DNA of 64,000 nt, taken from positions 5,332,001 to 5,396,000 of the forward strand of contig OX597818.1 of assembly GCA_951406725.2 (NCBI GenBank). The letters run 5' to 3'. The DNA is from Octopus vulgaris. Its lineage: Eukaryota. Under the pieces are notes generated by a model. It did no database searches. It saw only the letters and a program-made list of their open reading frames with translations, and had not been told where the DNA came from. The position numbers and the translations under genes were made by a program. Below are positions 8,901 through 64,000 of this stretch, piece after piece. The stretch's first letter is position 1; every line of letters begins with the position of its first letter.

Positions 8901-8913
8901 ATATCTATCTATC

Positions 8914-8944
<31 letters not shown>

Positions 8945-8969
8945 CTACCTATCTATCTATCTATCTCTC

Positions 8970-9038
<69 letters not shown>

Positions 9039-9331
9039 TACGGTAGATAAACACAGTTAAATTTCTCACGTATATTTACTGGTCGAAAGGGATAAACAGC
9101 CCCCAGTTTAAAACATTCATTAATGTTACAATGTTATATCGCCTGAAGAAATGAATCCATGAAGATGATCTACCCGATGCCCACGGGCGCTATGGAATAC
9201 ACTGTAATCATCCTGAAAATACGGACTGTGGTCTTAAAAAGCATGAGTGCTATGGAAACGCAAGTTGGTGGTCCAGCATGGCCGCAGTCAAAATGATTGA
9301 AACAAGTAAAAGCAGAATAAAAGACCAAAAC

Positions 9332-9374
<43 letters not shown>

Positions 9375-9409
9375 GTGTGTGTGTTTGTGTGTGTGTATGA
9401 GTCTGTGTT

Positions 9410-9451
<42 letters not shown>

Positions 9452-9452
<1 letters not shown>

Positions 9453-10934
9453 TAGCATGATGACCCGTCGGTGCCGGGTCATAGTGCTAGTGCTTGTTTA
9501 TATATGTGTATGTATATGTGTACATATTACATGTACATCTATATATATATATACATCTACACATAAAATACAAAGTTATATCTTGATATAGCTAGTGATA
9601 ACAATACTCAAAATATATAACAGACTGGAATTCTAGGCCCGTCTCTTGTAATTTCGATCAATTTTATCGTGTTCTTCCTCTTGTATAGAAGTGTGGCTAC
9701 AATCCAGCCTACTTCTACTTCTGGGGGAAAATTTTTAAAATTTTTATCCGGGACGTTCTACGTCCCAGATCTAAAGGTAAAAGTAAAATATTTCCACTTT
9801 GCAAGGTTCAAGTCGAGTACTCCCTTGCACGCTCCGTTGACTCATCTTTCATAGTCGCACCAAGACACTTTTCGTTGGTGCTTTCATCCAGGTGTTCAAA
9901 TCTTTTTTTCCTCTACATTGTATACTTTATAGACAATAGTCTTTTCTTTTATTTAACTTTTTATTTCGTTTGGCTGTGTTATCCTAGATTCACCGTCTTT
10001 GTCGGTGATCAATAGGAAATAGCTTTGTATTTCTTCCATTTTAATTTTAATGAGTTCTCGCCTGCCGACGGCGGCAGCAAAGTTCATTTTTGGACTTTCT
10101 TCTATGGAAGGCATTCTAACAAAAATGCTTCCGTGTAAACGGTGAAAATATTGTCAATTTCCCCAAACAGGGAAACAATTCAATTTTTAAACAATAACCA
10201 AAGCTCCTTCACCCAAAGGGGGAGGACTACAGTTTACAATTATTTAACAAATGCAACACAACAACGTTTCCCTTACGAGGAACCAATAAAACGTGATAAC
10301 AATAGTTAAACAGCAATAATAATAACAACAAACCTTACGGTGAATCAAAAAGCAGTACGCAGTTGAAGCTATAGTCCTTTATGTATAAGAAATAAACCAA
10401 CAGCAGTAGAAGCGGCTGTTCGAGAAAACAGACATTACATACAGCCAAACTTCATATAGATAGTTAATGCTAGCTAATTAGCAGATAAACTAATGTAAAA
10501 GCCGTAGTAAATAGTATGTGCACAGCTCCATCTGGACTATTCCATTTCTGCACACTAATTTTATTTTTAATTTATTCTCATTCATGTGAAACCACTTATT
10601 CAAGTTCAAGTCATTGATGCAATTTTATACCAATTGCTATTTTTACTTTTCTTATGTTACGATTATATTATACTTTAGTTTGATTTTAATTATTACTTAC
10701 TACATATAATTCAATTGTTATTATTATCTCTAAATTTTATTGTTAAAGTGAAAGTATCTGACATAAAATAGGGAAATGTTTTTGTTTCATTTTTAACACG
10801 TAATACTGTAATTCATTTGCCCGCCCATGAAACTACATGGACCCTAAGTAAGGCATGTGTAAAATTTGAAGGAAATTGGTTGGGTAGTTCTCAAGTTTTA
10901 GGGAAACACACAGACAGACAGACACACATTCTCA

Positions 10935-10945
<11 letters not shown>
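9452..10945 (-). mobile_element. Probable non-autonomous Helitron-like element
   Basis: The minus-strand 5' end reads tatataaaactgagaatgtgtgtctgtctgtctg, typical of Lep1-like Helitrons. The other end has the hairpin atgacccg/cgggtcat bracketed by CTAG (9452-9491). The same architecture occurs at 34190-35400. Confidence 0.5.
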
Positions 10946-10969
<24 letters not shown>

Positions 10970-10983
10970 TATTATATAGAAGG

Positions 10984-11034
10984 AGCTTCTACAGGACTAG
11001 AACTGTTTCATTCAAGAGAAATCTTCAGGAAGCT
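10984..11034 (-). ncRNA. Type I hammerhead ribozyme motif (mirror copy in the palindrome)
   Basis: Exact reverse-complement copy of 11031-11081, a consequence of the palindrome. Confidence 0.75.
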
Positions 11035-11081
11035 TCCTGAAGATTTCTCTTGAATGAAACAGTTCTAGTCCTGTAGAAGCT
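11031..11081 (+). ncRNA. Type I hammerhead ribozyme motif
   Basis: Stem I agcttc(11031-36)/gaagct(11076-81); core CTGAAGA 11037-43; stem II t-ttc-tctt-gaa-t; GAAA 11056-59; stem III ACAG/CTGT with loop ttctagtc; GUA cleavage triplet ending at 11075. Confidence 0.8.
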
Positions 11082-11167
11082 CCTTCTATATAATAAATTA
11101 ATTTTACTCTGCTATGTATTGAGTACCTTATTTACTGTGGTTAACCCCGAATCAACCCGGGACCTAC

Positions 11168-11237
<70 letters not shown>

Positions 11238-11442
11238 TAGCTTAATAATCCTAACGCCGGGCTAAACTACTAGGGATTCTATAAGTTTCTAAGTTTAATA
11301 CAAATTATATTTCGAAATTAAATTAATGTCTGTATAAATGTTTTCGAAGATAAGTGAAAAAGATTTTATGAAAGATTTGAAATATCAGTAATTCTTTTTC
11401 TCTTCAGTGAATTCAACACACACATATATACGCACACACACA

Positions 11443-11496
<54 letters not shown>

Positions 11497-11529
11497 AACA
11501 CACGTGTGTCCATTTATGCATGTATGTAC

Positions 11530-11578
<49 letters not shown>

Positions 11579-11904
11579 TTAAACGCACAAATTATATATT
11601 CTTTCTTCGCTCGTTTATTATTGTTCTTATTTTATCTTATGTCCATCGTCTGTAAATCTTCTTCAGTGATCCTTTCCGTCCACGAGTATTCTGCTCCTCC
11701 TAAAAAATGGACTAGGCGGGGCAGGAGGATACACGTGGATAGAAAGTGTCACAGATGTGAGACAAAAGATTTTGAGGCATTGGATATAAGCTAAAATAGC
11801 AGTAATAAACGTGTGAAGAACGAATATATGATGCGTGTTTCTTTGGCAAAAAACGACCATCCTGAATAATAATAACAATAATAATAGTGATAATAATAAT
11901 AGTG

Positions 11905-11982
<78 letters not shown>

Positions 11983-11985
<3 letters not shown>

Positions 11986-12310
11986 GCATGAGCACAAACC
12001 GCAGAGAGTGGCGGCGTCGGAGATTAACAAAATCCTGTGGGTCTTCGCTAGCCAAACAGTTCAGGTGCAAGAGTATAACAGACCGGAAAAAGTGCACCAC
12101 ATGTGCTATACAGTTGATGTAGCATGCCCCTTTCGCTCGGGAATAGTCAAGAAGGAAGGTAAAACAATACATAAATATAACCCTCTTAAGTACGAAATAG
12201 ACCGGGTATGAAAAATGAAGGTGAAGATAGTGCCAATTATTGTTAGGTCCTTGGGGTCAGTATCAGAAGGCATGAAGAGGAACATAATGGAAGTTGGAAT
12301 AGAGTGTTCA
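11983..12310 (+). mobile_element. 5'-truncated RLE LINE fragment following an (AAT)n tract
   Basis: WHEHKPQRV...KILW...NRPE...VDVACPF...KYNPLKYEI...KIVPIIV are RLE domain motifs; the fragment starts directly after (AAT)n at about 11866-11982. Confidence 0.75.
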
Positions 12311-12602
12311 TTATGAATATAAATGAATTTATAATATGATATATTTTGTTAAAGTAAACCATAATAATATTTTATTATGTTTATATTATTATTTCATTTA
12401 TATATTCATACTGATATCAATATGTATATTCATAAAATATATATTGAATATATTGAGTAATGAAATAAGTATAATCAAATGTTTAAATGTCGTATCATAA
12501 ATTTCCAATGTTTGAATTAATATATTTTTATCCTGCGAACGGTTTATTTGACCCTGCATTTCAGTTGGTATGGACAGTTTCCTACTTCAAGATAAATTAT
12601 TT

Positions 12603-37139: not shown

Positions 37140-40100
37140 ATTGTTTCATGTTGGACTTTTGCTTTACATTTGTCCAAGTTGGCTCCGACTCTCACCCAGA
37201 GACCTCAAGAGAGAACGAGTTGGAAGTTCATGTTGGTGTTATGTCTAGGGTGCCATATATTTGGTTTTGTACATAGTGTTGTTCTAGAGAATGTTCAAGA
37301 AACCATGAAAACATTATGAGTTTGTTTTTAAATATGAGATTATATACAAACTATTTTGCGTAGGTTATGAGCAGTTTCCCTGAGCAATATCTTTTGAATT
37401 TCTGCCATTTTGGGGTTTCCTGGAATCTGAGCTAGGTAGCAATCAGCCCCTTTTGCTATAATTCCCAAGACACCAGGTATTGTTTTAGTCTTCAGGTTCC
37501 ACATTTTTCTAATTTTTATTTGAAGATCTTTATATTGGTTCAGTTTTTGGTAGGTCTTGACAAATACGTTTATATAGATTGGAACAGTCATATCAATGAG
37601 GAGGCATTATTTTTGTCTCGAGTCTTTCAATATGATGTCTGGCATATTCGCGTCTATCTTTCTGTCAGTTTGAATGGTGACGTTCCAGAGGAGTGAGATG
37701 TGATCATTTTCAAGCACTAGATGTGGTTTGTGTTCCCATCAGTTTTTACCATATGGCAAGTCCAGGCTTTTGCAACTTACCCAGTGAATATATTATGCAG
37801 CTCTATCATGCCTGTTGAGATACTCTGTAGGCACAAGAAAACTGCACTTAGTGACAACATTATCAATGGTTTCATTTTGTTGTTGACATACACGACATGT
37901 GCTATGACGTTCTTTAATATGTTGACCTGGTAGTTCCTTGTAGGTAGGCATTGATCTTGAGCTGCTATGATAAATCCTTCTGTTTTAGATTTTAAGCCAG
38001 AGGCCATTAGCCATTGTTGGGTTAGGGCTTTGTCATCGGCATTATTCGCTCTCTTTGGGTATTTGCCATAGAGAGGTTTTTCTTGCCATTTATCAAGAAT
38101 ATCTAAGGCATCAGTTTTAGCACGGGTTTTCATGTGCTTAGCTTTTTCTGCGCTTGTTTCTCGTATGACTAATTCAGGAATTTATTTTATTCGGAATTCA
38201 CTTAGATATTCCTTTGCCTGTTTTGTTACTTGGTATGATGATTACTTGTTTTCATGTTTGGGACAATTTTAACATCTAGTCCTCAGAGTTTTCAGGTAGG
38301 TGTCTAGGCCAATTGTGGCAATATTCATTGCTAACGTCAGTTGTAAAAGTCCACGGCGTCCATCTTTTCTTGCCAGAGAAAGTCCTTCTATATCTGCCTT
38401 AGGGTGGTGCATTCTATGCATTGTCAACAGTTTTCGCATTTTTCTGTCAAGATTACATATTTCAGTAATTGACCAGTTAACGACTGACCTGGTAGTTCCT
38501 TGAAGCTGCCCGCATAACGAGGTATGAAAAGCGTGTTAGATTCTTCAAGAACAACAACATGTTCAAAAATAACCCCCAATTTTTGGGGGGTAGTTCCTTG
38601 TAGGTAGGCATTGATCTTGAGCTGCTATGATAAATCCTTCTGTTTCAGATTTTAAGCCAGAAGCCATTAGCCATGGTTGGGTCAGGGCTTTGTCAACATA
38701 TGCACTATTCGCTCTCTTTGGGTATTTGTTATAGAGACGTTTTTCTTGCCATTTATCATTCAGAATATCTAAGGCAACAGTTTTAGCACGGGTTTTCATG
38801 CGCATAGCTTTTTCTGTTCTTCTTCTTCTTCTTCTTCTTCTTCTTCTTCTTCTTCTTCTTCTTCTTCTTCTTCTTCTTCTTCTTCTTCTTCTTCTTCTTC
38901 TTCTTCTTCTTCTTCTTCTTCTTCTTTTTCTTTTTAAAGCATTTCTGTTAAAGCATTGATCGCTTCTATCCTGTTTCTCGCATTCAGCTCTGTCTTGAGT
39001 ATTGCTCTTACTCTGCGATAACATTCTCTCCTGATCCTTTCCTTCATCACTGAATGCCTTATTCCGTCCCCTTCAATTACCCCTAGTTATTTGTAGCTCT
39101 CGGCTAGGTCTAACTTTTTTATGAAATTCTGCTGGTCAAGGTTAAAGTTAAACGTTACTGTCATATTTCCTTTGATAAAGGTAGCTTTTGCACATTTATC
39201 GAGGCCAAATTGCATTCTGATATCATCACTGAATTGTTTAACAATCGCTAGTAAGCCCTTGAGTTGTTGGTCATTCTTTGCAAAGAACTTTAAATCATCC
39301 ATGTAAATGAGATGATTTATATTGTTATCAAACATTTTATCACCGTACTGTTCATCATTGAGTAATTTTGAGAGGGGTATTAAGGCTAAAGATAAGAGGA
39401 TTGGTGATAGTGAGTCACCCTGGAGAATGACAGCATTTAGAAATACATTGTCACTATTCAAAGTTACTGTGGTTCTCCATGATCTCATACTTCCAGACAA
39501 AAATAGCGCCTACTTAGCAGAGTAGGCGCTATTTTATACATTTCTAGGCATTTCTTAATCCAGCTATGTGGCGGGCTCTTAAAAGCTTTTTTATAGTCTA
39601 TCCAAGCTATTGACAAGTTCTTGTGTCGTTTGTGACAATCTCCTAAGATCATCTTATTGATGAGTAGCTGATCTTTACAACCATAGGATCCACGTTTACA
39701 TCCTTTTTGCTCATTAGGGAATATGCTGTTTTCTATTAAAAAACTATAGGTATATTCAGTCAGGACAAATGTTAGCGTTTTATATACAGTTGTTAAGCAG
39801 TTTGTGGGTCTATAAGTTTTTGGTTCGTTTGTTTCTTCACTTTTTGGAAGCAGGAATATTAAACCATTGACTAGCCAAGAAGGCATCCTACTAGGTTGTT
39901 GCAAAACATCGTTGTAAATTATGTTAGCAGTTCATGGCTCTTTAGGATGGCATTCAACCAGAAGTTAGGAATTTTATCCTTTCCTAGAGACTTCCATTTG
40001 CTTGACCTCCTGAGAGCAGATCTTATATTTTCTACCTTGACACCCTCCCACTTTTGCTCCTCTAAGGAGTCCAAGTCTGTAGATATTCTATCAACCCTAG

Positions 40101-40583
40101 GGGCTTTTTCATTGTGTTTTTTCTTCTGCCCAAATTTTATTCTAAAATCCCTTCACTTCTTTCGACGGAACAAACTTTACAGTAACTGGTGTTTTCCCTA
40201 TCTTACAGTAAATAAATTGGGGGTTATTTTTGAACATGTTATTGTTCTTGAAGAATCTAACAAGCTTTTCATACCTCGTTATGCGGGCAGCTTCAGCACA
40301 TACCTTTTGCTTGATGGTTTCTATGGTGGCATCAATGGTTTTCATATATTTTTTCTTTAATTTTCGGGTTTTTGTAGGTTTAGTAGTCTTGTCAAACTTA
40401 AGGTTTTCCAAACATACCATGTCATACCTAAGTAGCTTAATTTGGTGTTGGATACACTCTTGCCAAGAAGGCTTTTTGTGAGAATGTTGCTGTTTTCTAA
40501 TCTTTTCAACACATAGGATCATTGAGATTTTCGCGGATGCATAGTACAGGTGGTTGTGATCTGTGATATCCACATCATTAGCT
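37140..40583 (-). mobile_element. Family A LINE, older copy, 5'-truncated, with an internal rearrangement at 38481-38950
   Basis: RT motifs ILQGDSLSP, HLIYMDDLK and WIDYKKAF; RLE C-terminus at 37340-37591; several frameshifts. Confidence 0.92.
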
Positions 40584-40604
40584 GATTATTATTATTATTA
40601 TTAT

Positions 40605-43600
40605 TCTATGTTTGACTTTTGCTTTATGTCTGTACAAGTTGGCTCCAAGTCTCACCCAGAGACCTCAAGAGACAACAGGTTGGAGGTTCTGTGCATTATA
40701 TTTTTTGTTTTTGTTTTTTGTTTTTTTTGGTGTTGTACTAGTGAATGTCTAATACATAAAAATTAAAAAATAAAAATAAAAATATAAAAAAAAGTTTGTT
40801 TTAAACCTATGTTTTACATAGAGAGTATTTTGCGTAGGATATGAGCAGTTCCCATGAGCACTATCTTTTGAATTTCTGCCATTTTGGGGTTTCCTGGTAT
40901 CTGAGTTAGGTAGCAATCAGTCCCTTTCGCTATCATTCTCAGGGCACCTATGACAACAGGTATTGTTTTAGTCTTCAGGTTCCACATTTTGCTGATTTCT
41001 ATTTCAAGATCTTTATATTTGCTCAGTTTTTGGTAGGTCTTGACAGATACGTTTATATCGATTGGGACAGTCATATCAATGAGGAGGCATGTTCTTTGTC
41101 TGAAGTCTTTCAATATGATGTCTGGCCTATTTGCATCTATCTTCCTGTCAGTTTGAATGGTGAAGTTCCAGAGGAGTGAGATGGGGTCATTTTCAAGCAC
41201 TGGAGGCGGATTGTTTTCAAACCAGTTTTTTTCATGGGGCAAATCCAGGTTTTTGCAAATTACCCAGTGAATATATTGTGCAGCTCTATCATGCCTACTG
41301 AGGTACTCTGTAGGCGCTAGAGGACTGCATTTGGAGACAACATGATCAATGGTTTCATTTTGTTGTCGGCATACACGACATGTTGGGCTACTGCCGTTCT
41401 TTAATATGTTGGCCTGGTAGTTTCTTGTTGGTAGGCATTGATCTTGAGCTGCTATGATAAACCCCTCTGTTTCAGATTTTAAGCCAGAGGCCATTAGCCA
41501 TTGATGGGTCAGGGCTTTGTCGATATCTGCATTATTCGCTCTCTTTGGGTATTTGCCATAGAGAGGTTTTTCTTGCCATTTATTATTCAGAATATCTAAG
41601 GTCGCAGTTTTGGCACGGGTTTTCATGCGCCTAGCTTTTTCTGTGCTTGTTTCTTGTATGTCTATCTCTAATTCCGAAATTGGTTGTATTCGGAATTCAC
41701 TTAGATATTCCTTTGCCTGTTTTGTGACTGAGTATGGTGCTTTCTTGTTTTCATGTTTTGAGACAAGTCTTAACATCCAGTCCTCAGAGTTTTTCAGGTA
41801 GGTGTCTAGGCCAATTGTAGCAATCTTCATTGTTATTGCCAGTTGCAAAAGACCACGGCCTCCCTCTTTTCTTGGCAGATAGAGTCGTTCTGTATCTGCC
41901 TTAGGGTGGTGCATTCTATGCATTGTCAGCAGTTTCCTTATTTTTCTGTCGAGCTGACATATTTCAGTAATTGACCAGTTAACAATATTGAAACTGTAAG
42001 TCACGACTGGTATGGCTAATGCATTGATCGCTTCGATTCTGTTTCTTGCATTCAGCTCTGTCTTGAGTATTTCTCTCACTCTTCGATAGCATTCTCTCCT
42101 GATCCTTTCCGTCATCTCTGAATGCCTTATTCCGTTCCCTTCAATTACCCCTAGGTACTTGTAGCTCCCCGCTGGGTCTAGTTCGTTTATGACATTCTGC
42201 TGGTGAAGGTTAACGTTAGATGTTTCTTTCATTTTCCCTTTGATAAAGGTAGCTTTTGCACAGCTGCTGCCTAGACATGTGATTTTTTTAGTACAGCTTG
42301 CGTAGCTACAGTAAAATGGAAGAATCTGATGTCGTCACTGAATTGTTTGACTATCGCTAGTAAGCCCTTGAGTTGTTGGTAATTTTTTGCAAAAAGCTTT
42401 AAATCATCCATGTAAATGAGATGATTTATATTTTTATCAAACATTTTATACCCGTACTGCGCGTCATTGAGCAGCTTTGAGAGAGGTATTAAGGATAAAC
42501 AAAAGAGGAGTGGTGACAGTGAGTCACTCTGGAAAATGCCACACGAAATTTTTACATCACCAGCATTTAGGGATTCATTGTCACTGTTCAGAGTTAGTGT
42601 GGTTCTCCATGATCTCATACTTACATACAAGAAGTTTCGCAGAGTAGGTGCTATCTTATACATTTCCAGGCATTTCTTAATCCAGCTATGTGGTAGGCTA
42701 TCAAAAGCCTTTTTATAGTCTATCCAGGCTATTGATAAGTTTTTGTGTCGTTTGTGACAATCTTCTAAGATCATCTTATTGATGAGTAGTTGGTCTTTAC
42801 AGCCGTAGGATCCACGTTTACATCCTTTCTGTTCATTAGGGAATATGCTGCTGTCTGTTAAAAAACTATAGGTATATTCCGTCAGGACAGATGTTAGTGT
42901 TTTGTACATAGTTGTTAAGCAGGTTATGGGTCTATAGTTTTTTGGTTCATTTGTTTCTTCACTTTTTGGAAGCAGGAATGTTAACCCATTAACTAGCCAA
43001 GAAGGCATCCTACTAGGGTGTTGCAAAACATCATTGTACAGTTCTGTTAGCAGTTCATGGCTCTCTGGGAAGGCATTCAGCCAGAAGTTAGGAATTTTAT
43101 CCTTTCTTGGAGACTTCCATTTGCTTGACCTCCTGAGAGCAGATCTTATATCTTCTACCTTGACACCCTCCCACTTTTGCTCTTCTAAGGGGTCCAGTTC
43201 TGTAGATATTCTGTCAATCCAGGGGGTCTTTTCGTTGTGTGTTTTTTCTTCTGCCCAGATTTTATTCCAAAATCCCTGCAATTCTTTTGATGGTACAGAC
43301 CTTGCAGTAAACGCTGTTTTTCCTATCTTCCTGTAAAAATTCTTGGTTTTATTTTTGAACATGTTGTTGTCCTTGAAAAATCTAACACGCTTTTCATACC
43401 TCGCTATGCGGGCAGCTTTGGCAGATACCTTTTGTTTGATGGTTTCTATAGTGGCATCAATATCAAGTATAGTTTTCATATTGTATTTTTTCAGTAATTT
43501 TGGGGTTTTTGTAGGTTTGGTAGTCTTGTGAGCCTTAAGGTTTTTCAAATATTCAATGTCAGATATAAAGATTTTAATTTGTTGTTGCAGACGCTCTTGC

Positions 43601-44660
43601 CAAGAAGGCTTTTTGTGGGAATGTTGCCGTTTTCTAATCTTTATACCACATAGGATCGTTGAGATTTTCGCGGATGCATAGTATAGGTGGTTGAGGTTTG
43701 TGATATCAACATCATTAGCTGAAATTATATCCTTACATGCAAGCCGGATTTTACCAATTATTTTCATGTTTTGGTTAGAGTTGCGGATTTTAGGAAGTGT
43801 ATCACGTTCATCCATGCTGGTTTCTTTAATTTTCAGCCATTCAATCATGATTTGATTTTCTAGCTCATGTAGTTCTGTTGGGTCAATATTTGTGTGACTT
43901 TCTTTATCTATTTGATGCTCATCTGTCTTAGTGTTTATGATTGGTTCAGGGAGTATTTCACTTTGCCTATCACTTATACTAAATCTTTCAATCCTCACAT
44001 CGTTTTTATCAGCCCTGGGCTGGTCTATAATTATTTCCTCTGTATTATCTTCTCTAGCTGCAGCTTCGTTCATTTTATCCGATATTGCTTGTCTAACTTG
44101 ATCAATCTCTACTTCAGTCAGTAATTTGTTTTTTATAATGTTTCTTCTGACGTTGGCAAGTTTGTTACTGTCTATGTAGGGTCTTACTTCAGGGTGTTTC
44201 TGTCTCCAGTTTAAGTATGCTTGTACAGTACTAGATTTATCCGTGGGGAAAATAATGGCATGGTAGAAGGCCTCAAGAACTTCTTTATTATCTTCCCTAG
44301 ACCATTTCTCCTTCTTTTCTTTTGATTATTTGGTGATGAGCATGGATGGCCATCTGTTGGAATATTCCGGTTGTGGGGTACGTCCAGCTCCTATGTGTTG
44401 GGAAGATTTGATCCAGTAGCTGATTTTTCAATCAGAATTTGGTTCAATTTTCGGGTACGTGGTCTTTTGTAATCCGCGCAACGACCAATGCGATTTATTG
44501 TTTGATTTGTTGACCTTGAAGCATGACGAGCATCCATTCTTATATTAGGAGATGGATCTGTCAGTTTAGGGTTCTCTACATGTAAGCATTGCTCATAGCG
44601 CAGCTTCTTAAGACTAGCAGATCTATATTCGTCTGTATTTTTTTTGTTGATAGTTTTATC
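40605..44660 (-). mobile_element. Near full-length R4/Dong-like non-LTR retrotransposon (single ORF: Myb-like N-terminus, RT, CCHC finger, RLE)
   Basis: KWSREDNKEVLEAFY (about 44310), NYRPITCL, WIDYKKAFDS, GIFQSDSLSP, YMDDLK, CRVC..ETIDHVVSKC, RHD, RPDII, IDMTVP, KLSKYKDL. The ORF is broken at 42263-42324 and near 44320; (TAA)n tail at 40584-40604. Confidence 0.95.
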
Positions 44661-48799: not shown

Positions 48800-51151
48800 G
48801 CAGATGTAGCACTTACACAGTGATGGTGATGATGATGATGACGATGATGACGACAATGGAGATGCTACTGCTGCTGAGTATTGTGATAATGATGGTGAGG
48901 ATGATGGAGATGCTGTTGATGATGACGACGATGTTGACTACGACGATAATTATCATTAGGATTATGACGAACATGATGATGATGGTGGTGACGTTGACAA
49001 ATATGCTGTAGAAGGGATATCACTGTAGTAGTATCTACTCCGCATTTCAAATATTAAGAACATCGTAAGATCACATGCTAACTTGAATGATATATTGACG
49101 AAAATAATTCAAGAAAAACCCATATAAAACTGGATGGCCAAAAATCAACGTCTTCTACCAAATATCTACTTATTCAATTCTCATTTCATAAAAATCGCCC
49201 CGATTTTTGATGTGCAAACTTCATATTTCAATTGAAATCAAATTTTCTAGCGTAGAAAACATGGTGTTTTCTTTTAATACTTACATGAATATTACGAGTT
49301 TTGCAGAAATACAAAGCTTATTTACATCAATGAAAGATATAATATTTATAAAATATACTCAACTGGAAAGTTCTATTCAACTATGTACTTTTTGATATCC
49401 GAAAAATATCGAAATGTGTAATAGATAATTGCCGATTCTGATCCTATAGAACAAAAATAAATAAATATATATATAAATATAATACAAACTTTTCTCATTT
49501 ATGACGTCATTTGCTTTGGAATATAATTAATAAGACATTACACTTTTGCAAAAATAAATACACCCATAACTACGATTATGCGAAAAACGACTAAATGTTA
49601 TATAGATTAATAAATGGTGAAATAAATCACCAATATTCATTGAAAGATATGTAGTTATTTGACTAAGTTGAAAAAGATTTAGAAGTGAGCGTGCCAACTT
49701 ACTAGAAGCATATTTATCATTAAATGACTCCATCATTTTTCAGCTATTAATCTATGCTGTTTCGATGTACATAGCTACTGCTATTAAAACTACCAACTGA
49801 ATTTTATTATACCATTACTATCTCTAATATACAAAGAACATATATTATAAATTATTTCTTATTGACGATTTCTAAGCGGCCAAGCACATTTATCGCTCGA
49901 CCCAACAAAATGTTGGCTCGAACTCAAACCAGTCTTGACTATAATTCCGTAGCCTAACCGCACATTAAAAATATCGATTTTTTCAATTTTTAATTCCCAT
50001 TAACTTTCTTAAACTTGTTTAATATTATTCATTATATTATATAACCTTTATTTTCATATAAGTTTTATAGCATAATAATTGATAATTATAATAATATGAT
50101 TTTTTTAAAAACATTATTTACTCGAGGACCTTTTCATATTCACATTTTGATAGACTCTCTATTTTACTCTTATACTCTCCCACTCTTCTTCTTTCTATGT
50201 ATATTTACTCTCTCTTTTACTTATTATTTCCCCTTTCTATCAGTCATCCCCTCTTTAGATATCTATATTTCTGTCTGTCCATTTGTTTCTCTGTCTGTTT
50301 CTTCTGTTTGTTTTTCTCTCTCCCATTTTACCACTCTCTATTTTTGCTTACTCGCTTTTTAACTTAATCTCCTTCTATTTCTGTCAATTCTCTGTCAATC
50401 CTCCTGTCCATCTATGAGTCCTCCACTCTCTCTATATCTATATGCCGGTCTGTCTGTCTCTATCTCTATCTCTGTTTTCTCTGTATTTTCGTTTGCGTTT
50501 CCCTTTGACACTCTTCCTCCTCTACCTACTGAACTTCCTCTCTTCCTCTCCTACTTTCCTCTATCTACCGACAATACTTTACTACCCTTTCTTTTCAGTC
50601 TACACAGCTTATTAATCTCTACCTCACAACATTAGAGAAGTTAAATTGCCCACGGGGTCATGTCACCACTCTGGTTATTCTTTGTCTCTTCTTTACGGTG
50701 ATCATCTCCAGGTCAAATTTAATTAACACCATGTCCGAATTCTCATTAATTCATTAGAATAAAAATACTACATGGGTTGTATCTTGAAGATAATAAATTT
50801 GAATTATTTTGAAAAAAGTAATAAACAATTATTTCCTTTGTACCTTCGAAAGGCAACATAAATAGAAATACAGAATATTCTCCCCTACCATAATCTCCCT
50901 CTTCCGGTGTTTGTTTATACATATATTGAAATATGTCATTCCGTGCAGTCGTGAGTATTTGTGTATGAATATCGTGATAATTTATATTTGTATCTTTATT
51001 GTTTGTGCATCTGCGTGTCAGGGTATATATATATACAAATATATATTTGTGTATAAATTTTTATTGTATCCCGGGTTTTATGCGCTAAGCCACTTGGTGT
51101 TAAATTGATGGTATTATTAAATTAATATCCAATTTTTCATCCTTATTTTTG

Positions 51152-51216
<65 letters not shown>

Positions 51217-51244
51217 TGTTGTGTTATATATATATATATATATT

Positions 51245-51280
51245 CGTTGCGTCTTGCAACCTTGGTTGCAAGACGCAACG
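51245..51280. repeat. Perfect hairpin with 17-bp arms and a 2-nt spacer
   Basis: cgttgcgtcttgcaacc-tt-ggttgcaagacgcaacg at the start of a (TA)n-flanked insert of about 200 bp. Confidence 0.95.
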
Positions 51281-51439
51281 TAAATTTTAGAAAATAAAAA
51301 TAAGAAATAAGTGGACATTTTACCGGTCAGTGTGTTAAATAATAAGGCACTGAAAGAGAATGACTCTCCCCAGACACAAGAGAATATGCTTCAACACACG
51401 AACTCATATAAAGAATCTTGCAAACCAAATCTAAAAGCG

Positions 51440-51479
<40 letters not shown>

Positions 51480-52939
51480 GTGCATACATACATACACACA
51501 CATACCTACATACATGCATATATGCGTACACATACACATGTATCTGTGTGTGTATCGGTGGATGTGTGTTTCTGTACGATGCTTAGATTGAAGAAATACA
51601 TTGGGGAAACTTCTAGGTTTACATATTCAAATAAATATATGCATACATATTCTAATTTCTCTCGAAAGGTATTAATTTCTGCTAAAGAAAATACCTTTTA
51701 TTTCGGCGCTGTTGTATGTCGAGATCCAATAAAAGAAGCAGCATTTAATGATGTTCGATATTGTTGCTGTCGCATCAACTGATGCGTTTTGCTGTTGCTG
51801 TAGAAGTTGTAGGTATTGTTCCTAATTCGTGCAGTAATCGCTATCGCCGTGGTTGCTTCCTGTTGCTGTTTACCTGCTGGTGTATTTGATGCTGTTGTTC
51901 TTCTGGTGGTGGCACTAGGTTAAGTCTTTAAACTTTCTGTCATTTGTCTATTGTTTGGTAGATAGCATTGATGTGATTGGTGCTTCAACAGCTTTTCGCT
52001 CATGTGTTTTCTACTCTGCACTACAAATAACATCTTCTGCTCTCCTGGGGTTTTTATTAAGGGTCTTGTCCAGTACCTCAGATTTCACCTGGTATAGGAT
52101 CTCTAAATACATCCCGATGTAATTGTCCTCTCAGTGTTTTTATATCGCTAAGAATGTTGATTTTCACTATACAATACATGTTTACACCCACCAGAAATCT
52201 ATTTCTGATGGTATATTCGAAACTCTCATCTTGGTCTCTCCAAGGTAGGTTTCTATCAGTGTGATATACCTTTCCTACGTGGAATTGAACTCACTCTAAT
52301 TCATGGCAATTGTTTCCTATTGAAAAATTACTTGTAAATAACCAAATCGCCTGGGATTTGTAAAAACCTCGATGTCCTTGGATATTTTCTGCTCGTTCTT
52401 GAACATATTCACTCCAACCTATTTTTTTTCATTAGTATTGATCCAAACACACATATTCTTTGCTCGGCTTGTCCCATAAGTTACAATGGGATCGTGCGTG
52501 TAACCTTTTTTTTCAGGTCATTCTGCTTTTTCCAGATTTCGCTGCTCCGTTGGAGGTATTCATGCTTTTATCTGTTGGTGTTGTTGCTTCTGTTGTTTAT
52601 TTTTTTCTTACTTCCGTTTTACTACTCAGTTCACTACTACGGCTGTAATGCTGTAGCTTCAAAGGCGTTGACAGCCTATTACTATATCCATTGCAAAATT
52701 ACCACCCATCCCACACTCCTCATGGCTGTCTTGGGTGAATATGTGGAAGCCATTTTAAACGTATTTGATTTGCAAAGCAAAAGTTCCTTTTTACTTCCAA
52801 AGTTTTGTTCTGGGTGGTAACAAAATGCATCAACCTATTCGGAACAAGTCATAGTGCCACGGAGCTTCCAAAATACTTTCAGCTACAGTAACGAAAAATA
52901 TCAACAGTAAGAACCACAGCACCAATAATAATTTCTAGT

Positions 52940-53125
52940 TTAGGGTGAAGGCGAGTATTTATGTAGGGTAGAAATACAACGAACCGAGGACTTGGATGGT
53001 GCTATATTTTATCAACCTAAAATGGATAAAAGGTAAATCTGACTTCAGTGGAATTTGAACTCAGAACGTAAAGAATTGGAATAAATATTCGCAACTACTT
53101 TTCAACGATCCAGTCATTTTGCCGG
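52940..53125 (-). mobile_element. Family 1 SINE, minus strand, degenerate
   Basis: ggaatttgaactcagaacgtaa is the reverse complement of ttacgttctgagttcaaattcc. Confidence 0.65.
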
Positions 53126-53289
53126 ACATACTACACCCGTATAATAGGCGCAATATTAGAAATAAATATCGACCATGCTATGTAAAAAGAGAAAAGAACT
53201 ATGACACTGCATCGGTAATATTACAGCACAATAATCATCAAATCTCCCAGGGCGATTACTATTCTTTCAGTTTTTATTTGTTCCCCTGA

Positions 53290-54420
53290 CTATGTGACCT
53301 TTCTCAGCAGTACCACCGTTTGTCGGCCCACAGAAATAGGAATCCTCCCGTTCCGCTGCCAGTTGCAGTTGATATCTGCTAAGAGGCCTACAAACAAATT
53401 TGGCATATAATAATAAAGCTGGTAGGGTAGACCATCGAACCGGGCGATTTGCCCCCCGTGCATCCCATCAACGCATTTCGTTTTTCCTCGGTTGTTATCG
53501 GCATCACGTAACGCCTCGCTCCAACTGCCGAGAGTCGTGCAATACTGTCGATGTTCCGCGCCACCATTCTTCCCAAACAGTTGGCCGAAGTGCTGCTGAA
53601 ATGCTGCACACATCTCAGGTTCAAGTACCGTGGCTTTGTTGTCACGGTGAGCCTCTGCTAATTGGGCCCATCGAGTGGCTTTAGTTTCCTTGTTTCTTAG
53701 AGCTTTACCTTAGATCTGATAATGCATCCTTCGTGGTTAGCGTTAAAGAATTGGTCAAGGACCAATCTCGCCCCCAGCACATGCGCTGCAAGGCCCCTTC
53801 TAAGTGCCTCTTCTAAGTTCCTAAGTTTCCCTCTATTCGATTTTCCTCTATCACTAGTGCTTTTCTAAACCTAATCGATTATATTCTAATTGCCCTTTAT
53901 CATTGCGTACCTTCATTTGTTATTGAGAATTGACCCCGTTAACGCCCGCTTAACTAATTCCTCATTGCGGTCTCTGTAAGCTTGGCACACCGGGCGTGAT
54001 GCATTCAGCTTCCAGTAATCGGATCCTTGTCTACATAGTCTATCTAAGCCGACTGTATAGATCACAAATTTGTGGTGTGTGTAGCCGACGATTTTAAAAA
54101 GTGGACAACCTACACCACTTATGTACTGGATGACCCGATGAGATGAGAGAGATCCACATTGGTACATACGGAAAATTTAGCCGTTACCTGTGAGACTTTT
54201 GAAATCATCTTAGCAGGTTTTCATGGCTTTTGCCCATCCCTCTTCTGTCCGCTAACCACACACTGCCCAATCGTGGCTCAAAGACAGCTGATAAGCTCCA
54301 AAGAATGTGACAATCCCAGGAAAACCTCAAAAGGGCTGCCCTGCTTCTGTCAGACCTCACACAGCCACTAGTCTGAAAGCACTCCCTTCGTTACTACTCA
54401 CATCCAGGAAGGGTCCAGGA
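53290..54420 (-). mobile_element. L1/Tx1-clade LINE ORF2 remnant (AP endonuclease to start of RT)
   Basis: Fragments LDVSSNEGSAFRLVAV, YTHHKFV (like SDH), DYWKLNAS, AFQQHFGQLF, GKSPG and DGLPYQLYY. Confidence 0.7.
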
Positions 54421-54585
54421 AGTCATTAGTATTCACGTCGTTAATATTCACGTACCGACTTCCTTCCAGGTATACGCTTAATATGTATATTAGTTTATCC
54501 AATGTATATTAGTTTATCCAATAACTATGATCAGCTATATACAGTGGCTATTTAAGCAATGTGTTCGAGGATGATTAATGGGTTA

Positions 54586-54639
54586 GATGGGTGCTGATAA
54601 AGGGGAAAAACCCACCGAAATATGGCATATACATCCATC
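54586..54639 (+). ncRNA. Type I hammerhead motif with a core substitution (CTGATAA)
   Basis: Stem I gatgggtg/catccatc (8 bp); stem II ggg/ccc; GAAA 54617-20; stem III ATATG-g-CATAT; AUA triplet ending at 54631. The G8-to-A change probably inactivates it. Confidence 0.65.
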
Positions 54640-57249
54640 ACCCAGTTTTCATCTTAGATTTCATTGTTTACATCTGACATCCTGTATACGAAACGTAGTA
54701 ACAAAAATCAGTGCTGGCTATAATTTCTATTGAATATCTGTGGAGATAACCGTAACAAATAATGTAAAGTCGCACTGCTGACGCAGTAGAACGCAATGTT
54801 GGCCTATAAAATCATTTAAAATACTTTATAGTATATAATGGTTTCATAACGAAATACCTGTAGCAGGGAAGTCGTAACACAGGTAATGCGTTCCTCTGCC
54901 CTTTAAAAGCTAGCGGCGGAGGAACACACATGACGACTTCTGCCCAGCCATAGGGCACAAATTCTTAACAAACTTTCTGTTGCTGCCTAGAAGTTGGAAG
55001 GCTAACACGCGATCGTCAACTGTCCAGTGACTCTGGTCACTCAAAACGACACGCTGATTGGTTACTTATACACTCACTTGGAAACGTCTTATTGCATTTT
55101 CTCTTTCACACAATGCATGGTTTGCTACTGCACATTAGTGAAGTAACTCTTCTCCGACAACATCAGTCCAGCAGATCGTTATTTCTATCGTCGCACACTT
55201 CTTTATACAGAACTGTCAAAACCATAATTACCTTTGTTTATTTGTTACACCGTGTTATCCACTCTTTAAATAAATCTGCATTATGTCAATTTCCAAAATG
55301 CCTTCTGATGATTTCATTTTCTCACACTGAGCAAGTATCTCTGTTACTAAAATCAGTGACCTGACGTGAGAATGTTTCATGATGAAACATTTATTAACAT
55401 TTAAAGTAAAAATGAAAAAAAGAATAGGGAGTACTAGCCGCATCACTGAACATTCACAGATGAACTCAGATGTGTAAATATTTTCATTCCATTTCCAAAA
55501 CACCGACTTATCTTCCAGTTTATGGTATTCCATGCACGTGCCTTCGCACTTGGATATATACATTTTCCCGCCAGCCGCCATTTGATACCGATTGCAACTC
55601 TGTTTCACTAGAGTTTAATTTTTTTTCTCGGTCAAGCGACAAGAACATGAAAAACAATGTGGACTAATTCCTATCTTCAGCATTATATGAAGATTCTTGT
55701 TCAAATTTCTTTCTGCTCATTTTGTTGCATTTTGTTGCATTCTTTTCATATTCTCATGTGCATCCATTCTGTAACATACCTTTTGACGCTGTGACACGCA
55801 CCCTACTCACACCTCATGTTGCACATTCAGTCTCTGATGCACAGCTTTTCTTTGGGAGATACTGCATCAGACTTTGCTATCGGTGTTGTTTTATGTTACT
55901 TCCAGCAGATACACGCGCACATTATGTTCTGCATGTTTTATCCTTCCTGTATTTAATGCATTGACACTTTAGTCTCTGCAGGCTCCCAATTGTAGCATCT
56001 GTAAGCGATTAATCGCTCTTGCAGGCTTGCAACACTTGTATCTACAAGCGACCCACCGCTCTTGCAGATTTAAAACTCTCTTGCCACTTCAGGCGACTCG
56101 CTGCTCCTGCAAGCAAACTTTTGGCACTGCTGATGGCCTAACAGCCAATATTTTCTGCAAGTGACCCACCGCTTTCGCAGACAAAATCTTGGCACTGCTT
56201 ATGTCTCAGCAACCAACATTCCACTCTCATACACTTTGACATTCGCATCCTGTAGATTCCAGTTTTCAGGACAGTTGCGATCACGTTTGCATGTCAGGTT
56301 TCGCTTGTTCTCTTTCGCTGAGACCAGATACTCGGACAGCAAACTACGAAGGTCTTCCTTCAGCTTCTTTATTATTATAGTGTACATTTGTTTTTGCTTT
56401 TCAGGGCTCCTTTTTCCTGTTACATATGTTTGTGAATATTCAATATTTTGCTTATGCCATTTTTTCCGAGATCAGATGGAACTCTGATCTGGAACATTCT
56501 TGGTAATTTTTTTACCGGTTCTAGACCGTTGTTTGCATGCTCCATGTTTATAATGTTCAAATTACTATTGTCTTGTATTTTAATGCGTGCTTAGCGTTCT
56601 ACAATCCCCGACTGGGTATCTGTAGTAGGGTAATCGAACTATTTCGCCCCTGCCTAACGACATACAGGTAATGTGTTCCTCTGCCCTTTAAAAGCTAGTG
56701 GTGGAGGAATACTCATGACGACTTCCGCCCAGCCGAAGGGCGCGAAAACAAAAAAAAAACTTTCAGTTGCTGCCTCGAAGCTGGAAGGTTAACACATGAT
56801 CATCAACTGACATGCTGATTGGTTATTTATACACTCACTTGGAAACGACTTATTGCATTTTCTCTTTCACACAAAGCATGGATTGTTACTGCTCATAAGT
56901 GAGGTAACTATTTTATTTGCCAGCATCAGTCCAGCAGATAGTTAATTCTATCGTCGCACACATCCTTATACACAAGAGAAAATCATAATTATCTTTATTT
57001 ATCTATTTATTACACCGTGTTATCCTCTCTTTAAATAAATCTGTTTTAAATTCCAAAAATGCCTTCTGATAATTTCATTTTCTCACTGAACAACTAGCTC
57101 TCTTACTAAATCACGTACCTACAAGTCATTAGTATTCACGTACCAGCTTCCAGGAATGCGTTTAATATGTAAATTCGTTTATCCAATAACTCTGCACTGC
57201 TATATATAGTGACTATTTAGCAACGTGTTGGAGGATGATCAATGGATCA

Positions 57250-57303
57250 GATGGGAGCTGATGAAAGGACAAAATCCACTGAAATATGGCACTTACACTC
57301 ATG
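57250..57303 (+). ncRNA. Type I hammerhead motif with canonical core and degenerate stems
   Basis: CTGATGA 57258-64, gga/tcc stem II and GAAA 57281-84, at the position paralogous to 54586-54639. Confidence 0.55.
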
Positions 57304-57419
57304 ACCCATTTTCCATCTTGATCTCGTTGCTTGTTTACATCTGACGTCTCACGTACGAAATGTAGTAGAGAAATCAGTGCTGGCTATAATTTGTATTGAC
57401 TATCTGTTGAGATAACCTT

Positions 57420-58213
57420 AAATGTTTTTGTTGTTGGCAGTGGTGTTGCTGCTGTGGATATTGTAGTCACAGTTGTTGCTGATGTTTACGAGGTTATCGG
57501 TTTTGGTTCTGTTGTTGGTGATGTTGCAGCTACCTACCTTCGTTGGTGTTCGGCCGTTGACAGAAGTGTATGTGGGGTGGAGGGGTCTTCCTTGTTTTGT
57601 TGTTGGCAGATGGCTTTTAGATGGTTTGTGTCCCTGCAGAGGGAGCACCTCGGCTTCTGCCTTCAATGAACACGTGGAGCTTGTTGTCATCTGATATAGA
57701 TTTCGTACTTTCAAAATCCAATTGGACCCATAATTCCATTATTTGTCCCATCGAGCTTTGCTGTTGCATTTTCCTTACCTTTAAAATATTCGCCTTGTCC
57801 ATGTTTAGGAGGACATCTGCTAACAACCAGTTGATATTTATTTCTAGTCGGATTTCTGTGGTTTTTAGTTTTTCCACTCTGCCACTCAGACATATGGGTA
57901 TTAAGAAGAGATCATTGTCTCTCAGTGTGGTGGTTGACTTTTTTCTGGCCTCTTCTTCTGTAGCGAATCTTACGTCTACCGTTCCATACCGATTAATTTT
58001 CGTAAGGTATGTCCCAGATTGGACACAAAGCCCTGTGAAGTTCTTCAAATTCCGACTTTTCACATCTGTACGTTTATAGGAGATTATTTTTTTCATTGTG
58101 ACTTCTACGTCAGTTTGAGGAGTATTCAGAAGTACTTCTCTCCCATTATATATGCTCACATAGCTTCTTGCATTTTTCAAATCGCTTGCTGAACAACACA
58201 GAAAATCTATCAC
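57420..58213 (-). pseudogene. LINE ORF1 (gag-like) remnant with a CCHC zinc knuckle
   Basis: 198-aa ORF with an RRM-like YGTVDVRFATEEEA segment. After a frameshift, PRCSLCRDTNHLKAIC fits CX2CX4HX4C (about 57605-57655). Confidence 0.65.
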
Positions 58214-58214
58214 T

Positions 58215-61200
58215 GAAGTGAAGCAGAAAGTTCTGAATGAGCTTGCAGTTGTAGGGCCTACGAATATGAATGATAGGGAACCACTCCATCAACTCTCAAA
58301 TGCACACCAATACAACACACAAATAAACATTGGCAACTGCGTTTACACGAGAATCATACAACTAAATCATGATCTTAATAAGATAAATGAAATGATTTAC
58401 TCTGTTGCTAAAGTAATCGAAAGACGCTGTTTAACTCCCCAAAAGCCAACAATACCAAATTCGAAACGAAATCAAACTGGAGGAGTAGAATTGAAACTGA
58501 AATTGAATCATTGCGACGGGAGATATCAATATTAACTGAGCTGATCTCTGGAAATGGTGTAAGATCAAGAAAAGGCAGGAAGATTGTGAGAAATTATGGA
58601 CTCACAACAAGAGAACTAATGTCAGCAAAAGAAATACTTAAACAAAAAGTTCAAGCAAAAGCTCAGATTTGAGAAAAGAATCAAATTCTACAAACAAAAT
58701 AAGATGTTCAAATCCAATGCCGAATCGTTTTACAGGGAAATAGGGAAAGAAAAAAATAGCCATTGAAAATCCACCCCCAATGGAAGAAGTTGAATACTTT
58801 TGGAAAAGGATCTGGGGTGATGAGAAACCATACAATGAAAATGCAAAGTGGATCAAACGCACCCAAGATGACGACAAAAATCAACAAGAACAGGTAAGAG
58901 AAGACATCTCAATCGCCGACCTAATGAGGGCACTAGCGAAAGCACATAAGTGAAAATCCCCTGTTATTGATAGAGTACCAAATTTCTGGCTCTTATCACT
59001 CTCGTCCGCATACTATTTAATAATACTATATTTAGTAATACTATTTAAAAGACCCGGCAAAAGCTCCCCATTGGATGGCAAATCGTATTGCTACCTCCTC
59101 CCCAAAAATAACGAACCGAAAGACCCAAACAACTGTCGGCCTATAATATGCTTATCTACTACCTATAAGATTTTGATATCTATTCTAGTAGAGAAAACAT
59201 ATACGTTTATGGAAGAGAATTACCTCTTTCCCACTGAACAAAAAGAATGCAGACTAGGCTCATACGGATTCAAAGATCAGCTGCTAATTAATCGCATGCT
59301 CCTTGAGAACTGCCATAAAAAGCGCAGAAATTTCAGCTCTTCATGGATTGATTATAAAAGAGCTTTTGACAGCATACCACATTCGTGGATTCTGAAATCG
59401 CCGGACATTTTCAAAATGTCTCCTGTGATTTCAGATTTTTTATAGTATAATGTATCACTATGGAACATGAAGCTCCAATTATATCATTCTAATGGAGTAT
59501 TGCGCTCAAACAAAATCAGCATAAACTGTGGCATTTTCCAAGGTGACTCACTTTCACCATTAATTTTCTGCATAGCACTAATACCATTCTCAAGTGAACT
59601 GAATAGAACAGGATATGGCAACAAAATTGACAACAGGAAAATAAGATATTTATTTTATATGGATGATTTAAAACTTTATGTCAAAGATGATGAAGTGCTT
59701 CAAGGACTACTACATACTGTGAAAGGATTCAGTGATGATATCGGGATGGAGTTTGGCCTTGAAAAGTGTGCCAAAGCCACGTTTAAGAAAGGGAAACTGG
59801 TAAAGTCAAGTTCAATCGAATTAGATGTCGAAACAGTAATAAAGGAACTTGAGCAGGAACAGACCTATAAATACCTAGGAATAAATGAAAGCTCTGGTAT
59901 CCAGCATGCAAGCATGAAAGAGAATGTTAGGAAGGAATGTTATAGAAGAGTTCGAGCAATCCTGAAGTCAGAGCTGAATGCATATAATAAGGTGTTAGCC
60001 ATAAATTCCTTAACAGTCCCAGTTGATCTTTATAGCTTTAATGTGCTTAACTGGAATACCAGTGAAATAATGAAAATTGACAGAAAAATCCGCAAGCTAC
60101 TGAATTGTAATAAAATGCATCATCCAAAGGCAGACGTGGACCGCCTTTACCTTCCAAGAGCTCAGGGAGTTCGAGGTTTGATCCAGCTTGAACTTACATA
60201 CAAAACTACCACAATCGGACTGGCCAACTACCTTGAAGCAACCAACGATTAGATGCTAAAACTTGTTGAAAAACATGAAAGACTGAAAAAACTTCACTAA
60301 AGAGAGCAAAAAAGTCGCTACTGATCTCTTAGATACCCACCAGATTGATCAGGTTGAAGGAAATGCGCTAACTGCTGCTGCAAAGAAAATAAAATTAATT
60401 GCACATGAAAAATTAGCTAGCATATGGGAACAGAAACCTCTGCATGGCAAGTATGTGGTCCGTAAGCAAAAAAGCTGATATCGACCAGAAACACACGCAC
60501 CAATGGTTACGAAGCTCAAAGCTAGAAGCAGAGAGTGAAGGTTTCATATTAGCTGCTCAAGACCAAAGCTTATTAACCTAGAACTACCTAGCCAATGTGA
60601 TAAAAAAATACAGCTGACCCCAAATGCCGAATCTGTAACGATGAGATTGAAACTATAGTCCACCTAATCTCAGGGTGTAGAGTCTTAGCACCTGTAGAAT
60701 ATAAAGCAAGACAACAGAGTCGGCCAGTATTTACATTGGACAATATGTCGGCATTCTAAAATCAAAACCGCTGACAAATAATATAAACACCATCCTGAAG
60801 CTGTGACTGAGGGAGAAAATATTTCGATTCTATGGGACTTCACCGTACATACCGACAAAACTATAAAAGCTAATAAACCGAATATTATTATAAAAGATCA
60901 GACAAAAAAGGTGTGTTTATTAATTTACATGAGTAATCCTTGCGATCACAATACAGCGGCGAAAGAATTTAACAAGATTAGTAAATATAAAGACTTGCTA
61001 ATGGAAATTGATAAAATGCGGCATCTCAAGTCTTACAGTACAAGTGATTGTAAGATCTCTAGGAATGATAAAAAAAAAGATACTGAAACCTATTTAAAAA
61101 TAATACCAGGCTTACCATCCTTATAGGAAGTGCAAAAAATCGTATTAACTGGAACGGCTCATGTATTGAGAAGAGCATTATCGCTGTGAAAACAACATCC

Positions 61201-61340
61201 ATTCATGAATTTATGTATTTATTAATTTTTAAATACATATTTCACCTGTGAATTTGCGCGTGTAATCTGGGAATGCATACAATGAGTTTCCCTGCCCTAG
61301 GTGTACGGAAAACACTCGGCGAGAAAAGGAAGAAAAAAAA
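58215..61340 (+). mobile_element. R4/Dong-like RLE LINE, family B, decayed
   Basis: NCRPIICL, WIDYKRAFDSIPHSW, GIFQGDSLSP, YMDDLKL, ILWDFTVHTDKTIKANKPNII and the EVQKIVLTGTAHVLRRALSL* end. The 3' UTR resembles 30750-30830. Confidence 0.93.
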
Positions 61341-61359
61341 TAATGATAATACATTTTAC

Positions 61360-64000
<2,641 letters not shown>

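Follow-up and report, generated by a model that had tools for sequence, protein, structure and literature searches.

A likely three-layer nest of repeats in Octopus vulgaris: a decayed hammerhead-repeat dimer split by a long terminal repeat-like element

In a stretch of 64,000 nucleotides of the Octopus vulgaris genome (GenBank assembly GCA_951406725.2, contig OX597818.1, positions 5,332,001 to 5,396,000 of the forward strand; hereafter the window, numbered from its first letter), two pairs of repeat blocks lie in the order X-Y...Y'-X', and each X block carries a hammerhead-like motif. This raises the question whether the locus is one element, as an earlier note on this DNA had proposed, or several elements inserted into one another. 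Our results point to the latter. The locus is probably a three-layer nest, in which a partial dimer (X-Z-X') of a hammerhead repeat of ~410 bp lies in a decayed Tx1/L1-type element and was later split by a 2.25-kb element resembling a long terminal repeat (LTR) retrotransposon. The best reading of X-Z-X' from its sequence is a fossil non-LTR retrozyme dimer with predicted cleavage and predicted circular RNA. The direct observations are the repeat blocks, their contrast in depth, the Z-to-X junction in other copies, a site that looks like a primer binding site (PBS), as well as the remnants of the host element. The features of the hammerhead repeat and of the block inside it, all on the plus strand, are as follows.

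54420..54858, plus strand: X+Z, the first of the two hammerhead-repeat units, from a high-copy family; 439 bp long, with a GC content of 0.34
54578..54645, plus strand: type I hammerhead of X, with core CUGAUAA (A replaces G at position 8), a palindrome-like stem III of 4 bp and a predicted cut after 54631
54859..55351, plus strand: Y, likely the 5' LTR, with a TG start, an imperfect terminal inverted repeat and a 3' end uncertain by ~3-4 nt
55352..56620, plus strand: interior of the nested element, 1.27 kb, at a depth of 1-3 times single copy in run X2
55353..55370, plus strand: PBS-like site immediately after Y, with 13 matches in 15 aligned columns to the tRNA-Trp 3' end
56621..57110, plus strand: Y', likely the 3' LTR, with a TG start, a poor purine tract before it and its end at 57110-57113
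57111..57421, plus strand: second unit of the hammerhead repeat, X', 3'-truncated (GC content 0.38)
57242..57309, plus strand: type I hammerhead of X', with the canonical core CUGAUGA, a stem III with 2 of 4 pairs broken and a predicted cut after 57295

The block order proposed earlier was confirmed, since both X and X' (54420-54758 and 57123-57421; 81% identity over 258 alignment columns) and Y and Y' (79% over 481 columns) align as genuine homologous pairs. The proposed adjacency of X and Y was only partly correct: both block orders are present, but 100 bp of X-family sequence, Z (54758-54858), separates X from Y. X and X' differ at 48 of 292 aligned bases (gap-free divergence 0.164+-0.022), and Y and Y' at 56 of 455 (0.123+-0.015). 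The Y...Y' block is 2,252 bp long, and its removal leaves ~750 bp of X-Z-X', or ~1.75 units. Likewise, subtracting it from the predicted cut-to-cut distance of 2664 nt leaves 412 nt. The length of the first unit includes local duplications of 15 bp and 19 bp.

Evidence for separate elements comes from public contigs of sequencing runs. Of 24 runs listed, 14 contain the stretch or part of it, and these carry four coded organism labels; the contigs of four runs were aligned to 53600-58300 at 80% likeness, including three DNA runs coded X2, X4 and X8. In all three, positions 54542-54855, which take in Z, lie at several hundred times single-copy depth: the X+Z bins reach 12,689 and 22,410 in X2, 17,582 and 26,324 in X4, and 1,269 and 1,893 in X8, while the single-copy flanks lie at ~65, 49 and 4-7, respectively. 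In run X2 the Y and Y' bins reach 138-513 and the interior bins 64-203, together ~1-8 times single copy. Among the best-supported loose ends, those behind 54858 read on into the start of X, showing the opening letters of X' (from 57113), in 66, 68 and 36 contigs (X2, X4 and X8). In addition, a joint from 54855 to 57110 that skips the entire Y...Y' block was displayed by two contigs in each of the three runs. In other copies, then, Z is joined directly to X, which places the Y...Y' block within this junction. Judged by eye, the loose ends displayed at 54543, 54589, 54704, 54758 and 54858 all resemble the X+Z unit, so the family closes on itself. X+Z is a high-copy family with a tandem unit of ~410 bp. 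No open reading frame (ORF) of 100 aa or longer was found inside X+Z or X'.

The family contigs thus bear out part of what the earlier note had proposed: the family is old and carries hammerheads, its unit is tandem or circularly permuted, and across the family the type I core is canonical. A unit of ~0.9 kb including Y found no support, because Z runs into the start of X without Y, and neither did a 3-kb element with ribozyme-bearing terminal repeats, as the Y block is separate and of low depth. The depth contrast and the Z-X junctions mark X and Y as independent families, an outcome that the note had named beforehand as refuting its proposal.

The contigs leaving at 54589 (55, 69 and 42 in X2, X4 and X8) carry CUGAAGA as their core, followed by a stem II of 5 bp, all Watson-Crick, and by the GA of GAAA, where the 30 displayed letters end; they agree at 0.77-0.79. 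This points to a canonical family hammerhead and to old copies. The family contains at least two hammerhead variants: CUGAUGA with a bulged stem II here, and CUGAAGA with a perfect stem II in most of the displayed relatives. Near-identical contigs span the junction with the host on the left in runs X2, X4 and X8, under three organism labels, and on the right in X2 and X8, which indicates that the insertion is shared and old. In run X17, guessed to be RNA, 70 contigs were found, some on X and one exact on the host flank; the displayed core variant was non-canonical, and no conclusion was drawn. A metagenome scan with the hammerhead pattern returned 0 loci. Separately, 11 metagenome loci matched a 19-mer; none of the 11 extended beyond 38 bases, and the matches were taken as chance.

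The motifs of X (CTGATAA at 54594-54600, GAAA at 54617-54620, triplet AUA, 8/8 pairs in stem I) and X' (CTGATGA at 57258-57264, GAAA at 57281-57284, triplet UUA) have identical spacing, with 16 nt from the core (54594 and 57258) to GAAA and 9 nt to UH. Of the 23 pairs of the distal and proximal stem I, stem II and stem III, three are broken in X and five in X', none of them in both, so that every pair is kept in at least one of the two copies compared; one stem II pair covaries from G-C to A-U. X had been described as having intact stems I and III with a deviant core. The core is as described, but a base pair of stem II and two distal pairs of stem I are broken. For X', the canonical core and the eroded stem III hold, but the distal stem I retains 7/8 pairs. 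The lesions had also been called complementary. They do not overlap, but independent decay gives this result with P=0.46, which leaves no special meaning to it. Sliding the stem partners lowered the pairing from 83% to 28-44%, for a structure that was itself drawn from X and X'. In folding predictions, X formed stem I strongly and stems II and III with low probability, and X' did not adopt the hammerhead fold. In 300 shuffles of the 3 kb, a loose hammerhead descriptor found two or more sites with P=0.053 and a site with a complete stem I (8/8 pairs) with P=0.007, and it returned 17 rows across the window. The descriptor alone is modest evidence for hammerheads; the strong evidence is the family contig data.

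Loss of the core G8 cripples hammerhead cleavage. The X-Z-X' locus is likely dead, because X lacks this G8, X' lacks stem III pairing, and the units lie 2.25 kb apart. The near-palindromic stem III would permit monomeric or dimeric cleavage. Two consecutive units with complete hammerheads, by which Li et al. define active loci, do not occur here, given the A at position 8, the broken stem III and the interruption; this concerns the activity of the present copy and not the hammerhead-repeat family.

The block that splits the dimer begins and ends with direct repeats of ~490 bp, both with a sharp TG boundary. Their terminal inverted repeat matches at 5/8 positions in Y and 6/8 in Y', with a CA end only if the boundary is shifted by 3-4 nt. 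The score of the PBS-like site was reached by 2 of 11,634 tiles, one being the site behind Y itself, with tRNA-Trp as the only tRNA tested; the reference was the tRNA-Trp primer site of Gypsy elements, as in Gypsy-32_NVi (PMC10886601, Fig. S2). A Pfam search of the six frames of 55369-56618, with X at stops, found no gag or pol (best E 0.0042, below the cut-off) and no match to a reverse transcriptase (RT) or GIY-YIG domain; decayed remnants could be missed. If Y...Y' is an LTR element, the lack of a gag or pol match makes it non-autonomous or internally deleted. Further copies of both Y and the interior are present in the contig runs, and a scan with the type I descriptor found no hammerhead in Y, Y' or the interior. 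From these sequence features, Y...Y' is likely a non-autonomous or internally deleted LTR element of 2.25 kb inserted at the Z-X junction. The divergence of Y and Y', which is lower than that of X and X', would fit a later insertion.

Two further features were seen in this block. A near-perfect palindrome of 21 nt (55371-55391) lies directly behind the PBS-like site. The interior contains, at 55998-56181, four copies of a 28-nt motif at a spacing of 43-68 nt, which on the minus strand read as a repeated LQER-like peptide in frames broken by stops.

The dimer is flanked on both sides by remnants of a host element on the opposite strand.

53263..54419, minus strand: remnant of ORF2 of a Tx1/L1-type non-LTR retrotransposon, from the C-terminal half of the apurinic/apyrimidinic (AP) endonuclease to the start of the RT, with stops and frameshifts
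57422..58288, minus strand: likely remnant of ORF1 of the same element, with a CX2CX4HX4C knuckle near 57650-57610 followed by a Thr/Pro-rich tail, without Pfam support

A first protein search with the host fragment was null, and an exhaustive search gave matches. A protein with Exo_endo_phos and RVT_1 domains (P0005) matches 54113-53299 at E 2e-24, and minus-strand matches to homologues with PF03372 and PF00078 cover 54116-53263 (iE 2e-14 and 2e-11). One of the eight host-element relatives looked up comes from Argonauta hians. The host is a Tx1/L1-type element by its sequence, with AP endonuclease followed by RT in ORF2, the putative clade being assigned by homologue match. The endonuclease fragment at 54419-54231 is collinear, with scores of 29-34 against shuffle maxima of 37-55, and is not significant alone. 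On one side of X-Z-X' lies the endonuclease-RT remnant (54419-53263), on the other what is likely left of ORF1 (57422-58288). A profile of nine full-length ORF2 relatives found no match to the ORF2 N-terminus in 50001-59000, which ruled out the interior of Y...Y' as a part of the host element. Because the first ~90-100 residues of ORF2 were not found and no target site duplication (TSD) accompanies X-Z-X' (no shared 5-mer or longer between the host flanks), a host deletion of at least 0.3 kb likely accompanied or followed the insertion.

A direct repeat of 9 nt spans the left junction between host and X (within 54403-54423). Like the duplications of 15 bp and 19 bp just inside X, with which it may belong, this repeat could be a scar left by integration or the product of later slippage. 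A depth of ~3,000-12,600 was seen in runs X2 and X4 over the host endonuclease part at 53914-54227 and the right edge at 58153-58300, which indicates that other abundant repeat families overlap there.

Animal retrozymes are proposed to spread by tandem transcription, hammerhead cutting, joining by a host ligase and reinsertion of tandem cDNA, probably by Penelope-like elements (PLEs) (PMC7229834). By analogy, each type I hammerhead would cut the read-through transcripts of tandem X+Z units, which would release monomers of ~410 nt. Such a monomer would be closed into a circle by a ligase of the host and returned to the genome by a Penelope-like reverse transcriptase/endonuclease, as a partial multimer in head-to-tail order. 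With ~1.75 units and no TSD, X-Z-X' looks like such a product. If the rate given in PMC13282606 (0.09 = 25 million years) applies, the dimer would be roughly 26 and the LTR element roughly 19 million years old.

Several points weigh against the nest and the retrozyme dimer within it. The contig evidence consists of the best-supported rows, namely 15 of 362 joints, 24 of 2,239 loose ends and 32 of 8,218 contig pieces, and contig depth is a rough measure and no copy number, here with a contrast of one to two orders of magnitude. The junctions Z|Y and Y'|X' are bridged by none of the best 32 of 8,218 pieces. The contigs display Z-X junctions in which the length of an array is not visible, and which are also compatible with partial pseudo-LTR tandems of a PLE. 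A search with Rfam found no hammerhead at the gathering score in the window and none at E<=10 in the region, where the only matches were three to snoRNAs, taken as chance. The minimum free energy of the circular fold, compared with shuffles, gave z=-1.63 for X+Z (40 shuffles) and z=0.78 for X', both copies being decayed, so X+Z folded as a circle has no clear advantage over its shuffles. The 412-nt monomer is slightly longer than the RNAs of 170-400 nt described for retrozymes. As to the nested element, its PBS-like site lacks its first two matches, its LTRs do not end in a clean CA, only a short and poor purine run precedes Y' as a polypurine tract (PPT), and no exact duplication marks the flanks as a TSD, at a decay of ~12%. 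The divergences of Y/Y' and X/X' overlap within error.

A single element is highly improbable. It would be either a circular or tandem unit X-Z-Y of ~0.9 kb or a 3-kb element with X and X' as its hammerhead-bearing ends, and it would account for the presence of both the X-to-Y and the Y-to-X adjacency and for X and X' flanking 2.7 kb as the pseudo-LTRs of a PLE would. However, in run X2 the depth of Y lies ~25- to 160-fold below that of X+Z, other copies pass from Z to X without Y, and Y has a TG start and a PBS-like site of its own. It is also very unlikely, if slightly less so, that X+Z is a retrozyme-type dimer and Y...Y' is some other low-copy repeat with direct ends, such as a tyrosine-recombinase relic, a hammerhead-less Penelope-type relic or a local duplication. 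The missing clean TSD, the poor PPT and the lack of a gag or pol match would suit such an origin, but the TG start of both repeats, their imperfect terminal inverted repeat, the PBS-like site 2-4 nt from the end of Y and the other copies of Y and interior in the runs favour an LTR element.

A different origin of the dimer, which we regard as unlikely, is that X+Z is the pseudo-LTR or the 3' end of an autonomous PLE, and X-Z-X' a truncated partial tandem newly made by it rather than a product of self-propagating circular RNA. Type I hammerheads occur in the pseudo-LTRs of PLEs, and in some of them helix II is bulged or helix III is small and palindromic (PMC4209133), partial tandems are typical of these elements (PMC8557442), and PLEs make up 6.83% of the O. 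vulgaris genome (supplement of PMC13282606). On the other hand, the displayed loose ends all resemble the unit, no RT or GIY-YIG match was found in the interior frames, and helix I (6+8 bp) and the 4-bp helix III are canonical and not minimal. Since a recent preprint proposes that retrozymes derive from pseudo-LTRs (bioRxiv 10.64898/2026.07.22.740005), such an origin differs from a retrozyme dimer in degree only. By contrast, functional complementation, in which the intact core of X' would cleave the intact site of X within a long read-through RNA, has a practically negligible probability. A hybrid can be drawn with 7/8 stem I, 5/5 stem III and 4/5 stem II pairs, and dimeric hammerheads are known (PMC4209133, PMC7229834), but at -6.9 kcal/mol against -32.1 for two separate folds the hybrid is disfavoured by ~25 kcal/mol, its partners lie 2.66 kb apart, and the non-overlap of the lesions is readily expected by chance. 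Taken together, we favour the three-layer nest with a hammerhead-repeat dimer as its middle layer.

The surrounding window is AT-rich, with many microsatellites and decayed non-LTR retrotransposons, and no tRNA gene was found in it. Decayed non-LTR retrotransposon copies with RT (Pfam RVT_1, E 3e-21) lie at 40814-44325 (minus strand), 38563-40585 (minus strand) and 58954-64000 (plus strand). Their C-terminal region resembles a restriction-like endonuclease, they are often broken by trinucleotide microsatellites, and their relatives, at 50-59% identity, occur across marine animals; these endonuclease-bearing copies look R4/Dong-like. At 5407-7428 (minus strand), a stop-to-stop frame of 673 aa contains ~10 copies of a Cys-rich repeat of 12 aa (a 36-bp tandem) and His/Tyr/Gln-rich stretches, and has no Pfam match above the cut-off.

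The locus extends hammerhead retrozyme-type repeats to what is likely an octopod lineage. The nest orders three insertions, and its dimer offers a case for asking if retrozymes enter the genome in the form of partial multimers, through a Penelope-type route. It also shows that an apparent X-Y...Y'-X' permutation can be merely an LTR element inside a tandem repeat. It is doubtful, if conceivable, that with X+Z a retrozyme family is described for the first time in a cephalopod, one that has two or more hammerhead subfamilies and whose younger members elsewhere in the genome still self-cleave, give abundant circular RNA of ~410 nt and are mobilised by PLEs of the host. In the accessible literature, with Repbase, Dfam and most subscription papers outside this scope, we found no report of a cephalopod or octopus hammerhead or retrozyme family; the supplement of PMC7229834 may list cephalopods. 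The word ribozyme is absent from the accessible main text and the one supplement of the 2026 O. vulgaris repeat annotation (PMC13282606).

Compared with known systems, the locus superficially resembles the LTR retrozymes of plants (PMC6765202, PMC7229834) in having LTRs, a PBS and two hammerheads. Those carry a type III hammerhead inside each LTR, whereas the hammerheads here are of type I, lie outside the LTRs and belong to a far more abundant family. With its TG direct repeats, the PBS-like site behind the first of them and a non-coding interior, Y...Y' is similar to non-autonomous or internally deleted LTR elements of the Gypsy type with a tRNA-Trp primer (PMC10886601). At 2.25 kb it is larger than terminal-repeat retrotransposons in miniature (<1 kb), and it has no clean TSD or PPT and no tRNA gene in its LTRs.

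With the pseudo-LTR hammerheads of PLEs (Cervera & de la Pena 2014, PMC4209133; Craig et al. 2021, PMC8557442), X and X' share type I and a palindrome-like helix III through which two copies can pair, and X-Z-X' shares the partial tandem insertion without a clear TSD. Unlike them, no RT or GIY-YIG ORF lies between or beside the repeats, the spacing of 2.7 kb is due to the nested element, and helices I and III are longer than in the minimal hammerhead ribozymes of PLEs.

The closest likeness is to the metazoan non-LTR retrozymes (Cervera & de la Pena 2020, PMC7229834; Li, Clavereau & Pollet 2026, bioRxiv 10.64898/2026.07.22.740005). X+Z differs from those described in its unit of ~410 nt with at least two hammerhead variants and old, divergent copies, and X-Z-X' in being an interrupted dimer with decayed motifs and no TSD. 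The repeat has in common with them a type I hammerhead with canonical helices, a short unit that is non-coding and runs head to tail, a low GC content, numerous copies in dispersed places and no ORF. Retrozyme repeats are described as 150-450 bp long with a GC content below 45-50% (PMC7229834), and the present repeat, with 412 nt from cut to cut and a GC content of 0.34-0.38, lies within this range. It likewise has no LTR, PBS or PPT of its own, as the LTR features belong to the nested block of low depth. The nearest described mollusc retrozyme is the 350-390 bp repeat of Mytilus galloprovincialis.

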